From the NCBI GenBank assembly GCA_951406725.2, contig OX597832.1:68076001-68140000 (forward strand): a stretch of 64,000 nucleotides of DNA, read 5' to 3'. Positions 13,621 to 57,726 of the stretch are shown here, in pieces. The notes below the pieces were generated by a model. The model was given only the letters and a program-made list of their open reading frames with translations. It ran no database searches and had not been told where the DNA came from. Position 1 is the first letter of the stretch, and each line of letters begins with the position of its first letter. The position numbers were made by a program, and so were the translations under genes. This DNA comes from Octopus vulgaris (lineage: Eukaryota).

Positions 13621-13699
13621 CAAACTAGTTTTCTTTATGGTATGCAGCATAATTTGAACATTCATGGGTTCAGAGAAAGCCTGACCTTTCTTTCTTGGT

Positions 13700-14075
13700 T
13701 CGACTACAATCCGTGCAACATTTATATTCCTCACCATGCCTGCCATCTCTTATGTCCCTGCCATAAGGCTTCACTTCCACCCACACCAGCTTAATTTAAT
13801 TCGTCCTTAGTCAAAAAGACACCTGTTGTTATGTCCTGTCATTTGCATTTGTATACCATTTCTCCGTTTCTTTTCCGTCCTTGTTTTCGTATACATTCGC
13901 TGCTTTCTTCCAAAGAATCTAGTACTCATAGCTTAGTTTTACCTTAGGAGTGGCCAGATTGGAGCAATCTCGAGTATAACCAGCCGAAAATGCAAAGATA
14001 ATCTGGAACCCTTTGAGGAAAGAAAACTTCGAATGAGCTGCCCGTGTTTTTTCTTGCCCCATTCTTTGTATTCTT
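13700..14075 (+). mobile_element. Non-coding repeat homologous to the 3' part of the 55821-56730 element
   Basis: Shared blocks tcttcca..aatcta, gcttagtttt, tggcc, aatctc, cagccgaaa, ttcgaatg and ccgtgttt occur in the same order and with similar spacing. Confidence 0.65.
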
Positions 14076-14175: not shown

Positions 14176-16206
14176 ATATGCATATTGTGCGCGTGCGCGT
14201 GCATGCGTGTGTGTGTTAGGATTAATTGGACACCGACAGAAAATTCGTTAGCGATTCACACAACAGACATCTGAATACCTTCCAGGCTTTTTCAGTTCGA
14301 TATGACACGGAAACATCTTGGGAAAATTCTTAACAGTGGAAACAAAAATGATCACAAGAAATTGAAATATCTAATGCACCGTTTTCTCTTCTTTTCCTCC
14401 TTGTACATAAAACGTTGCTAGAGTATGAGATGAAGTCGACGTCTGCTGACAGCAACCATAGAAAGTATTTCTTTAATCTTTCTTGAAAATTGCATTTGGG
14501 GATTAGCTTTAACATTTTCAAACTCTTTCATGAATCAAAATATATTATTTCAATTCCTTCATGATATAATCTTTCAAATAAACACGATTGTTCTAGGAGG
14601 GTGGTTGACCAGTTACATAGGGCGAGAAACAGACTAGATAGGAAGTCGGTATCTTGTGTGCTGTCAACCTGATTTCTTCGTGCTGACGGTCAAGGCACAT
14701 ATTTATCAAAAGGTCGAAATATTGGATCATGCCTCAGTTTCAACTTTCGAGTTCGTCCATTTTATTTTTCATCTATTCAAGTGAGAATTTCACAGACAAG
14801 TGTATGTTTAAAGTAATCCTTAAACCGAATGCGCATAACAAATTGTGTTCCAAGTTTCGACCTTTAAATCGAACGAGTTTCCGTTATTGTTTCCAGTTAC
14901 CAAATGTCAATAACTCGACTTAGATCAACCCGAGGCTGTGTGATAAAAATGTTTGCCATAAATTTCACATCGAGGTATCGAAATTGGGACCTGATGAGAG
15001 CAAAGACGACTTCTTAATGACTCATCGAAATTAAACTCCGTTCTACAATGTATGAAAATAGTGTTGCTCTATACAATAGCATCATCATGAAACTGAAACT
15101 TCATTCATTAACATACGGTGTTAATTGCGATACTTCCTGTGGATCAGGAAAAACTATACCAGTCCTTAACCAAGTTCAATGCATATCAAGGTAGCTTTAA
15201 AATTCGACGTCTGGCTCCGAGAAAAACGTGAATAACGTAGATGCGTACCCCAAAATTCTATCGACATTAAAATCATCACTGCAATGCGGCCATTTTGCCA
15301 CAGACATTAGTTCAGTGTATTTATTTAATACGCAGAGGTTTATTCATTTCTAACAATTTGCATTTATAGCCACGGGGCATTGATACGTCACTGCTTCCAA
15401 TAGGTAAACCAGTACAGTAAAAAAAATAACCGGTCAACTTCTATCGCCGCTTCGTGATAACAAATAATTGATTACTTTAATTAACATGAGGCTTCAAGTA
15501 AGTTATATTATTGTATGTGTCTGTTGAATAAAGTAATATTTAATAAGTAGACCATATCTCATTCACCTCGAAGAGTGGAACCGAAAAGTTAATTCTAGCA
15601 ATATTTTAGCACACACACTGTAGAAGTGAGAAGATAAATAATGAAATACAGGAAAGAAAAAATGTTGATCATAATTAACGAAGGAAATAAACGGAATTTA
15701 ATTAAAGTTTTTTTTTTATTGTTTCTTCTCATAATTAGAAGAAAATCAACACATCCAACAAAAAAAGCAAAACAATTGCAAGTAAAACAAATTCAAAAGA
15801 CATGCTGTAAAATTAGCTTCGAGTCATTTCAAATTCTGGATCAGACTTGGTATTTCTTCCACAACTGACATCTACAAGTCATTAAATGTCCCATCAGGAT
15901 TTTGCTTCCTGTCCACGTCACTGAAGGCCTAAATTCCTGCAGGAAATTGATGAGGTTATTTCATCAATGGCCCAGTATATTTCTGTGATATTTTCTTATT
16001 TTGGCTCATTAAAACCAGGTAACTATTTCACCAGGTGCATAGGAATGGAGTGGAAAAGTCATTTGCACATAAAATATAAAAATGTAAGTTTATCAAACGT
16101 TTCGGCCCGTATGGAAATTACTTTGTCTGGTTTCATATGGAGGCTTAAATTCAACTCATTCGCTACTAAGTGGGTATCTTCCCTCTTCTAATAATAAGTA
16201 ATGTTT

Positions 16207-34455: not shown

Positions 34456-34610
34456 CAACAACAACAACGAAAAATACCTTAGGAAAGAGAATCCAGGTTC
34501 GAAATTTCCTCAAGACACCTGAAGAAGGCTGGAGGTTATATCAGCCGAAATGTTGTGTTAACAACAAACACGATGAGAACAAATATCCATCAAATGTAAA
34601 TAATGTATAT
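34338..34610 (+). mobile_element. tRNA-like SINE head, (AAT)n(AAC)n spacer and hammerhead-bearing tail
   Basis: A box tggcgtagtgg and B box gagttcgatt (34338-34398), a trinucleotide tract, then a tail with a hammerhead at 34514-34559. Confidence 0.7.
34514..34559 (+). ncRNA. Minimal hammerhead ribozyme motif
   Basis: gacac-CTGAAGA-aggctg..cagcc-GAAA-tg-TT-gtgtt. Stems I and II are intact; stem III tg is probably CpG-decayed cg. Confidence 0.7.
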
Positions 34611-37466: not shown

Positions 37467-37521
37467 TCCATATCGCGTGTTTTCGAACGCTGATCAGTTA
37501 ATCATAGTTCTCATCAGTGGA
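37467..37521 (-). ncRNA. Minimal hammerhead ribozyme motif
   Basis: Minus strand: tcca-CTGATGA-gaac...gttc-GAAA-acacgcga-TA-tgga. Confidence 0.75.
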
Positions 37522-55735: not shown

Positions 55736-55820
55736 ATGTAGATATATATATACATATATGTAGATATAGATAGATATATATATATGTATGTATCTGTTTC
55801 CCCTATCTCTCTCTCTCTCT

Positions 55821-56730
55821 CTAAGAGTTATACGTTCTTGTCCATGTTGTATTTTTCTACATACCTTAACATATATTCCAGGCGCCACGTACCCTCTTAA
55901 CATTAATGTGAGCACATATTCTTAATAACTGGTACGACTCTTTGTTTGTCTCTCTCTCTCTCTCACTTTTACTTGATCTGTCCCCTTCTCTCTCTACTCA
56001 TCCTCTTTTTCTCTTCTCTTTCCTCTGATTCTTTGGTCTAATCTTCCACTACCCTCCTATTTCTTTGTCTCGCTCTGCACTCACAGGTCGCTCTTCGACA
56101 CCCATCCCTTCTCCTCTCTGATTCCTTCTTTCTCTCTCTTCTCGCTCTTTGTCGCGTTTGTCCCTCCTCTCTCTCTCTCCTCTCTCTCTCTCTTCCGTTG
56201 CTTCTCTTTCTTTTCTTTTCTCTCTTCTCTGTCACGTGACTGCTGGCCGAAATCTGCCTTTCAGCTTCTGACCAGCGTCGTGTTAACATCGTTGTTTTTC
56301 GTCCGCCGCTATAGGCATCGCCGATAAGGCTCCTTTCCTTGCGCCAGAGAAAAAATTGTTTGCTTGTTATCAGTCGTAAGACACTTGTTGTTGTTTTCAC
56401 CGTTAATGCTTCTGTATTTCATGTTTCTGTATTCCATTATTTTTTTGTTTTTTTATATTCGTCCCTTTTGCTGTCCTGGTGTCCGTATGCATTCGATCCT
56501 TCTTCCAGGAAATCTACGCTCCCAGCTTAGTTTTTCTAATGCTCGTTGCTTAGTTTTTCTTGGAGGGCTGGCCGTGATCTAGTAATCTCAAGATTAATCA
56601 GCCGAAATTACTACGATGATCCGATTCTTGACTGAAGACTGAGGGTTTCGAATGTCCTGTCCGTGTTTATTGTATCGTCTTCTAAGAGTTATACGTTCTT
56701 GTCCATGTTGTATTTTTCTACATACCTTAA
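55821..56730 (+). mobile_element. Non-coding element with identical 49-bp terminal direct repeats (PLE pLTR/retrozyme-like)
   Basis: ctaagagttatacgttcttgtccatgttgtatttttctacataccttaa occurs at 55821-55869 and 56682-56730. The interior is CT-rich and no ORF is recognisable. Confidence 0.75.
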
Positions 56731-57726
56731 TATATATATATATATATTGGCCTGCTCGCTTAGCCAGCGGGGTGGCGTCATTTGAAGGCTAAAATAATGT
56801 GAGGCGTGTTGTGACCAGCGATGTGTTGCAACATCTGATAGCCTAGTCGGTCATGGTGATCATGGTAGTGATATATATAGATATATCATCCGTTTCAGTT
56901 GTACAATTGCTGATGATGAGTTTGTGATATTTACACACGTGTGCAGGGTCATTCCCGCGCACACACATACATGTAGGAATGCATGCATATATGTTTAATT
57001 ACATATATATGTTTATGTGTATTTGTGTGTAAGGGTATTTAATCTTAAAATATGCTTAAATGTTGTTTCAGAATTCAGAAAATGTTTGTATTTCCTCTTA
57101 GTTTACATAGGCAAAAAATGTACTAAATATTGCATTGATTCCTGTTTAGGAAACAATTTTTGAATAGCATTTCTGGAATAGATTATATTTAGTGTATTGG
57201 ACGTTTTCTGGCAGGTTTCTTTTGTTGTTAATTCGTATTCTTTAAAAGGTAAAGAAAAAGATATTAAATGAGTAAGTATGATGCCGAAAAACAACAAAAA
57301 TAAATTAACTAAAATTTTATACATATTCGCAGAAGGTGTTTTCAAATAGAACTAGACAAAACGAACAGACTATGGTATAGTTTATATATCAGGATAAAGT
57401 GGAAGAAAAAATAGTGTTTATGTTTTGTTTTTCAAGCACGAGATGCAATCATTTCAGATACAAATCAAAGCAGATCTTTTATCAAAAATAAAATGAAAGC
57501 ATGTAAAATGGTGCCTTTTGAGTTGGAGGGTGTTATTCGTCTCATAAATCGACACAAAAATACGTAGACAGAGATATAGTTAAATATCACTGTATTATAT
57601 GTGGGTGTGCGCGCGTGTGCGTTGTGTATGTGCATGCATAAATATGTATACACACAAGCATATATATATATATATATATATATAATACATGGATATACAG
57701 AAAAACAGACAGACAGACAGACAGCT

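Follow-up and report, generated by a model that had tools for sequence, protein, structure and literature searches.

Two related non-coding repeats on the window's forward strand
The window, a stretch of 64,000 nucleotides from the Octopus vulgaris genome, carries two copies of a structured repeat motif on its forward strand. The first lies in a non-autonomous element of a young family (family A) at 55820..56737, which consists of a 57-nt 5'-truncated lead (55820-55876) followed by one full 861-bp monomer (55877-56737) that ends at (TA)n. The second is a decayed copy of an older family (family B) at 13677..14071, with the motif at 13948-14035, where point changes affect stems I, II and III as well as C3. 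A sequence-only reading had placed a shared motif at 56555..56665 and 13940-14050, and we verified both positions. The common origin that it proposed is borne out by a blastn match (67.6% over 139 nt, E 3e-5) and by a local alignment score of 167.5, where 200 shuffles reached a maximum of 100. Our coordinates also agree with its own for stem b of the 13.9-kb copy (13954-60/14000-06), for stem c (56580-86/56607-13 and 13964-68/13989-93) and for the GGCTG/CAGCC pairing (56566-70/56599-603). The decay of this last pairing in the 13.9-kb copy is real, but it is private to that copy and not family-wide: most of 31 other family-B segments that we aligned have an intact GGCTGG/CCAGCC pairing, stem c and CUGAGGA.

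We searched the 2.8-Gb source genome for both families. For family A, a first look gave 1849 candidates, and the top 40 scored copies were ~99-100% identical. Its 861-bp monomer is non-coding; copies are 5'-truncated or arranged in head-to-tail tandem, and every copy stops at one point before (TA)n, so that the 3' end is constant. Family B gave 1131 first-look candidates, and its relatives were 85-91% identical. A loose core pattern had 5300 genome matches, compared with 134 for the reversed control, and exposed many diverged families. Six open reading frames, five of them from the window, had no relevant match in Pfam.

Core bases and strand order of the motif
The 56.6-kb copy has a full hammerhead core, namely CUGAAGA, GAAA, an AUC site and the pairs G10.1-C11.1 and A15.1-U16.1. 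We number bases by the hammerhead convention and name blocks S, G and C as in Eckert et al. 2023 (PMC10085705). From 5' to 3', the strands run II5' - b - S - G - b' - I'/CUGAnGA. The 5' strand of stem II (56566..56571, with G10.1 at 56566), placed by covariation and by a stem II control, is detached from CUGAnGA and sits 72 nt upstream of A9 rather than directly after it. It is followed by the 5' strand of stem b (56572..56581), which includes the strand opposite the bulge of a predicted kink-turn (3n, 2n and 1n at 56579-81). Block S (56582..56593) contains the 5' strand of stem III (U16.1 at 56586), AUC at 56585-87, the predicted cut at 56587/56588 and the 5' strand of stem I (56588-93). After a link of 4 nt comes block G (56598..56611), with the 3' strand of stem II (56598-603), G12, A13, A14 and A15.1 (56604-07) and then the 3' strand of stem III. 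The 3' strand of stem b (56612..56624) carries the predicted kink-turn bulge (56612-14) and G1b and A2b (56615-16). The last element (56626..56638) consists of the 3' strand of stem I (56626-31) and the core CUGAAGA, with C3 to A9 at 56632-38. All of these features are on the forward strand. Stem b connects stems I and II at their distal ends.

We aligned 17 hand-picked copies of the window's (A/B) clade and 14 of the E/F clade without using structure. In stems II, b, III and I together, 80.6% of cells were paired in the A/B clade, with double changes in 17 out of 24 pairs; the same four stems in the E/F clade were 87.2% paired, with double changes in 13 out of 19 pairs. None of 500 shuffles reached the covariation score, a count that is not a probability because the representatives were hand-picked and related, and slid registers paired at 18-43%. 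The compensatory changes claimed by the sequence-only reading extend across diverged families. G10.1-C11.1 is present in 16 out of 17 A/B and 11 out of 14 E/F copies, and A15.1-U16.1 in 15 out of 17 and 13 out of 14, respectively. While all stems vary across families, N7 alone varies among the core bases (A, G, U or C).

Overall, we put the probability that the motif is a cleaving, split-core permuted hammerhead at roughly three in four. The sequence-only reading was right that the RNA covaries, is pseudoknotted and is of a ribozyme type, and that it sits where Penelope-like elements (PLEs) and retrozymes carry their ribozyme; what it took for a structured RNA candidate reads as a hammerhead. 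The pairings that it called stem c and GGCTG/CAGCC are real and went unrecognised as stems III and II. Its "TGA-GA" block is the hammerhead CUGAnGA, which it overlooked, and its pairings omit the second pseudoknot, stem I (56588-93/56626-31). It had also found that the strand order fitted neither a hammerhead nor an HDV-like ribozyme. This holds for HDV-like folds and for hammerhead types I, II and III, whose nested three-way orders (CGS, GSC and SCG) differ from the order here of S, G and then CUGAnGA with crossing stems, but a non-circular split hammerhead does fit. The misfit arose from a non-circular permutation combined with a split core.

We also considered an ordinary type-SGC hammerhead, in which stem II would be formed by the bases after CUGAnGA and the upstream strand would be a decoy or an off-switch. 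At that usual place, the A/B clade has 16% pairing with the 3' strand of stem II and no G at 10.1, so that these bases cannot form the stem. For comparison across the genome, a stem I of at least 5 pairs together with a stem III of at least 4 pairs was found in 60 of 177 distinct genomic instances, a set that includes truncated copies and chance matches, and in none of 120 chance stretches from a metagenome pattern scan that served as the null. Among those 60 instances, 42 have an upstream stem II of at least 5 pairs (13 out of 120 in the null). A stem II of at least 4 pairs after A9 is possible in 8 out of 60, all from the E/F clade, where a purine run allows a wobble-rich 4-bp stem; these, together with a single Naiad record in part 17 of the supplement to Craig et al. 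2021 that resembles type SGC by eye, are what speaks for the ordinary fold. In the same clade, however, it is the upstream strand that covaries with the 3' strand of stem II (3 out of 5 pairs), whereas the run after A9 is nearly constant. A continuous block C, with 0-2 nt between A9 and the stem II strand, is accordingly absent from the A/B clade and ambiguous in the E/F clade, and we regard the ordinary type-SGC reading as improbable.

The split hammerhead shares much with the types described by Eckert et al. 2023 (PMC10085705), who took CUGAnGA and its adjacent strands as inseparable, which gives six possible hammerhead orders, and assumed at most 1-2 inserted bases between A9 and G10.1. Like their types SGC and CSG, it has the same blocks in the cyclic order S, G, C, two pseudoknots, a stem I-II linker of 3-5 nt and a helix that connects stems I and II at their other ends; the cyclic order, short linker and joining helix are those by which types SGC, CSG and GCS are recognised. 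Unlike them, it has block C split, with II5' first and CUGAnGA last, it has two extra predicted helices (IV and V), and both strands of its joining helix run on into stem III. Types SGC and CSG are known in that paper from metatranscriptomes and metagenomes only, whereas the form here occurs in thousands of copies in an animal genome. Judged from its sequence, the split-core form belongs to the non-circular hammerhead series of Eckert et al. but is opened at the A9/G10.1 link. In the open-access literature, we found no description of a split-core permuted hammerhead; "type-SGC" appeared in Eckert et al. 2023 only, and nothing joined "permuted hammerhead" with retrotransposons.

Predicted helices IV and V and the genomic 5' ends
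The minimum free energy (MFE) fold of 56485-56660 (176 nt) has a z-score of -2.8 and contains two further helices on the forward strand. Stem V is a hairpin (56503..56565, pairing 56503-12 with 56556-65) that ends directly before G10.1; within its loop, at 56514-56555, family A carries a duplication of ~21 nt relative to family B. Stem IV pairs the strand after A9 (56641..56654, which includes the CGAATG block) with the strand just before stem V, whose extent is put at 56490..56502. In an anchored test of 29 representatives, stem V was strong in 21 (9% shuffled) and stem IV in 19 (9% shuffled, 26% clade-swapped). Constrained MFE folding gave a tight IV/V junction in none of the 29 representatives, partly because the forced open core is penalised; this outcome speaks against the junction, and stem IV consequently rests on the anchored test, which was designed after that result. 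An earlier model, in which stem IV paired straight with the bases before G10.1, was abandoned for stems IV plus V on the basis of the MFE fold and the anchored test. Helices IV and V, stem II and the core may form a four-way junction, in which IV and V would stack together and keep A9 beside G10.1. A viroid hammerhead accepts one extra base between A9 and G10.1. Confirmation of this was not found in the available portions of PMC2632901 and PMC6155905, and those of Perreault 2011 describe other hammerhead core insertions and no helix at A9/G10.1.

The CGAATG block bears on another explanation, a new ribozyme class or a relative of HDV-like or twister ribozymes with CGAATG as its catalytic strand. 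The block is conserved in the A/B clade, the motif has a double pseudoknot and Rfam offers no match for it: a scan of 56400-56720, the check that accompanied the sequence-only reading, gave a single snoRNA match (sR48, E 2.8) and nothing relevant, and the best 150 of 334 matches listed for the whole window were microsatellite-driven miRNA matches only. In the MFE fold, however, CGAATG pairs with an upstream CATTCG, and it is absent from the E/F and Naiad-type families, which keep every hammerhead base. A new class is therefore very improbable. An HDV-like ribozyme in particular was rejected, as no P2 partner or L3 was seen by eye, CGAATG, the would-be J4/2 strand, is paired upstream and Rfam gave no match.

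A kink-turn sequence pattern (a 3-nt bulge, then G-A and A-G) occurs in the internal loop between stems III and b in 16 out of 30 representatives and in 11 out of 15 from the A/B clade. Other bulge lengths fit the pattern in 0-10 out of 30, and the bulge bases are variable. Family A has U rather than G at position 2n in all 47 copies, giving A-U at 2b-2n. The same A-U exception to the kink-turn consensus is known from Kt-23 (PMC2790904). The pattern is absent from most E/F copies and from several published Naiads. We infer that the III/b internal loop would be a kink-turn in most of these families.

The 5' ends of genomic copies bear on cleavage. We found 2225 genome matches that kept the GAAA region and lost the GG of II5', and fetched the first 100 listed (chromosome C1, A/B clade). 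Of these, 86 were simple 5' truncations and were counted; eight with further upstream homology and six inversions were left out, and a family E truncation search, in which mutated full copies dominated, was excluded from the counts. Relative to the predicted bond, truncations started at offsets 0 to +11 in 75 out of 86 cases and at offsets -20 to -5 in 11, compared with a downstream expectation of 39% (uniform null, real flanks). Offset 0 held 12 truncations, with 3.4 expected, and offsets -4 to -1 held none, with 7.7 expected. The step has a p of about 2e-20 against a microhomology-aware null. Only 12 of the 75 downstream junctions lie exactly at the bond; AT microhomologies at +5 and +9 hold most. 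Most short copies run into (TA)n and terminate there, 125-190 nt downstream. The step indicates that, for a share of the templates, the 5' end likely lay at the hammerhead bond, and, judged from these genomic sequences, the motif likely cleaves the element RNA after AUC at 56585-87.

The same data were weighed against a fold derived from a hammerhead that no longer cuts and instead binds a protein or signals an RT stop; RT stalling or a protein nuclease would then account for the 5'-end step. Copies that read through the predicted cut site are many (4574, twice the 2225 without the upstream GG), and the junctions are spread over 0 to +11. In addition, the hammerhead of another PLE is inactive without protein, its cleavage is dispensable for insertion in vitro and no RNA ends were seen at the site (PMC11167929). 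Yet the position of the step coincides exactly with the bond expected by analogy with hammerheads, a reverse transcriptase that has passed the 3' strands of stems b and III should meet no new helix there, and the core bases are invariant although N7 and all stems vary. A non-cutting fold is thus unlikely, though it is the most probable of the alternatives.

Separately, in copies with an inverted 5' end, the change of strand often lies within the ribozyme, near GAAA or the predicted cut (L061, L062, L082, L085, L090 and L104).

Naiad elements, possible docking between units and biological meaning
Craig et al. 2021 (PMC8557442) reported that Naiads, a group of PLEs, target (TA)n and lack canonical hammerheads; some show half of a core, separated from its second half by 35-50 nt, annotated "HHR_core/half_core". 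We searched the Naiad consensi of the supplement to that paper, so far as it was available, for four CUGAnGA variants and judged layouts by eye; cores broken across lines were missed, and record names were deduced from the header that followed or from the record's place in the file. Nine records clearly had the split layout: three from Acropora (near-identical), two from octopus, two from Morbakka and one from Clytia (these last three by position) and one unnamed (part 19). Helices IV and V adjoin the core in most of the nine. Records from Euprymna and Beroe have an imperfect split layout by eye, and no such motif was seen by the same search in the bivalve part of the supplement.

As a separate observation, six Naiad records (File S5, PMC8557442), four of them nematode by header and two unnamed, contain an intact type CSG. 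At their ends, the nematode consensi have textbook hammerheads of type CSG, which Eckert et al. 2023 had from only two metagenomic sequences.

In the source genome, the octopus Naiad motif had 166 matches (control 0). Family N carries the split layout in sense orientation 1.1-1.7 kb downstream of Naiad-type RT fragments in 7 out of 30 loci, one of which is the query's own. Insertion into (TA)n, 5' truncation and inversion, partial tandems and a fixed 3' end are found in the window's repeats as in Naiads (PMC8557442), together with an RNA layout that is alike by eye. Unlike Naiads, families A and B are non-coding; they were never found joined to an open reading frame and had no blastn similarity to Naiad copies, so that their Naiad origin is drawn from the common RNA architecture and insertion habits. 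The tandem non-coding repeats likely derive from Naiad-type PLEs, and the split hammerhead is likely the ribozyme that Naiads were reported to lack. In the open-access literature, Naiads and hammerheads occurred together in Craig et al. 2021, a 2026 preprint (in whose available text all models are of type I) and a paper on a fungal genome.

Intact Neptune-type 781-aa PLEs were rejected as the partner: 30 GIY-YIG loci and 12 longer stretches had no split motif on the sense strand, and the motif at one such locus (L157) is on the opposite strand, in a separate insertion. One of these elements (L171:1245-3587, +; also L172-L174) has an intact 781-aa Neptune-like PLE open reading frame with RVT_1, a Cys linker and, at the C terminus, a GIY-YIG domain, a long upstream reading frame and many near-identical copies. 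By eye, its 3' end has a type I hammerhead-like motif with a U3-A8 core variant, and it is a candidate mobiliser of family A. A broken PLE endonuclease-linker fragment (L011:2142-2684, -) adjoins an opposite-strand family A copy and looks unrelated. The window itself also holds a common PLE-type repeat whose motif at 34519-34555 (+) resembles a canonical minimal type I hammerhead (CUGAAGA, an additional A, stem II and then GAAA). The stem II strands of this motif, six bases each, are the same as those of family A. Type I-like CUGAUGA...CGAAA spacings were found by regular expression at 37478-37517 (-) and 14991-15030 (+).

The repeats resemble non-LTR retrozymes and the minimal type I hammerheads of PLE pseudo-LTRs (PMC4209133; bioRxiv 10.64898/2026.07.22.740005) in being tandem, non-autonomous and tied to PLEs, with one hammerhead per unit, and the activity of those hammerheads is thought to require two copies. 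Those ribozymes have a type I fold and a short palindromic stem III, whereas here each tandem unit holds the split permuted form in place of a type I hammerhead, stem III is stable and the wiring is non-circular; an assembly of two copies, if there is one, would exchange stems I and II.

Stems b and III would make one rod, with I5' and II3' in its terminal loop and II5', I' and CUGAnGA in the internal loop at its far end. This single rod makes loop docking between units or molecules the most likely route, and we lean towards an active site that forms when the terminal loop of one unit or molecule docks onto the internal loop of another. Folding back of one unit through the kink is a serious alternative that falls somewhat short of even odds. 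The spacings are tight (35-44 nt from G10.1 to G12 and 27-30 nt from G12 to C3) and fit a fold-back; by an estimate from A-form rise, the far ends of stems II and III in an active hammerhead are ~40-45 A apart. Some published Naiads, in the available records, have much longer III/b rods with short or absent linkers, which makes an intact fold-back impossible and favours docking. Docking also agrees with the dimer principle of PLE hammerheads (PMC4209133). Cutting between tandem units would release monomers starting at 56588. Reverse transcription primed ~145 nt downstream at nicked (TA)n would then run to the cut end and yield short copies, and uncut, multimeric or circular templates would give read-through and tandem copies such as those in the window.

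More tentatively, and with the odds slightly against so broad a statement, Naiads across animal phyla may use non-circular hammerheads: intact type CSG in nematodes and the four-way-junction form opened at A9/G10.1 in cnidarians and cephalopods. The latter would be active only with two units docked loop-into-loop and would thus act as a switch that counts its own units, cutting multimers while leaving monomers intact.

If the split hammerhead is real, the set of six hammerhead orders would be extended by breaking one link that had been assumed fixed, and non-circular hammerheads would move from rare environmental RNAs to animal genomes, in thousands of copies. The pile-up of genomic 5' ends at this bond speaks indirectly for cutting of the retrotransposition template by a PLE-type ribozyme, itself an open question. 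The split form would also explain the apparent absence in Naiads of the ribozyme that other Penelope-like elements carry.
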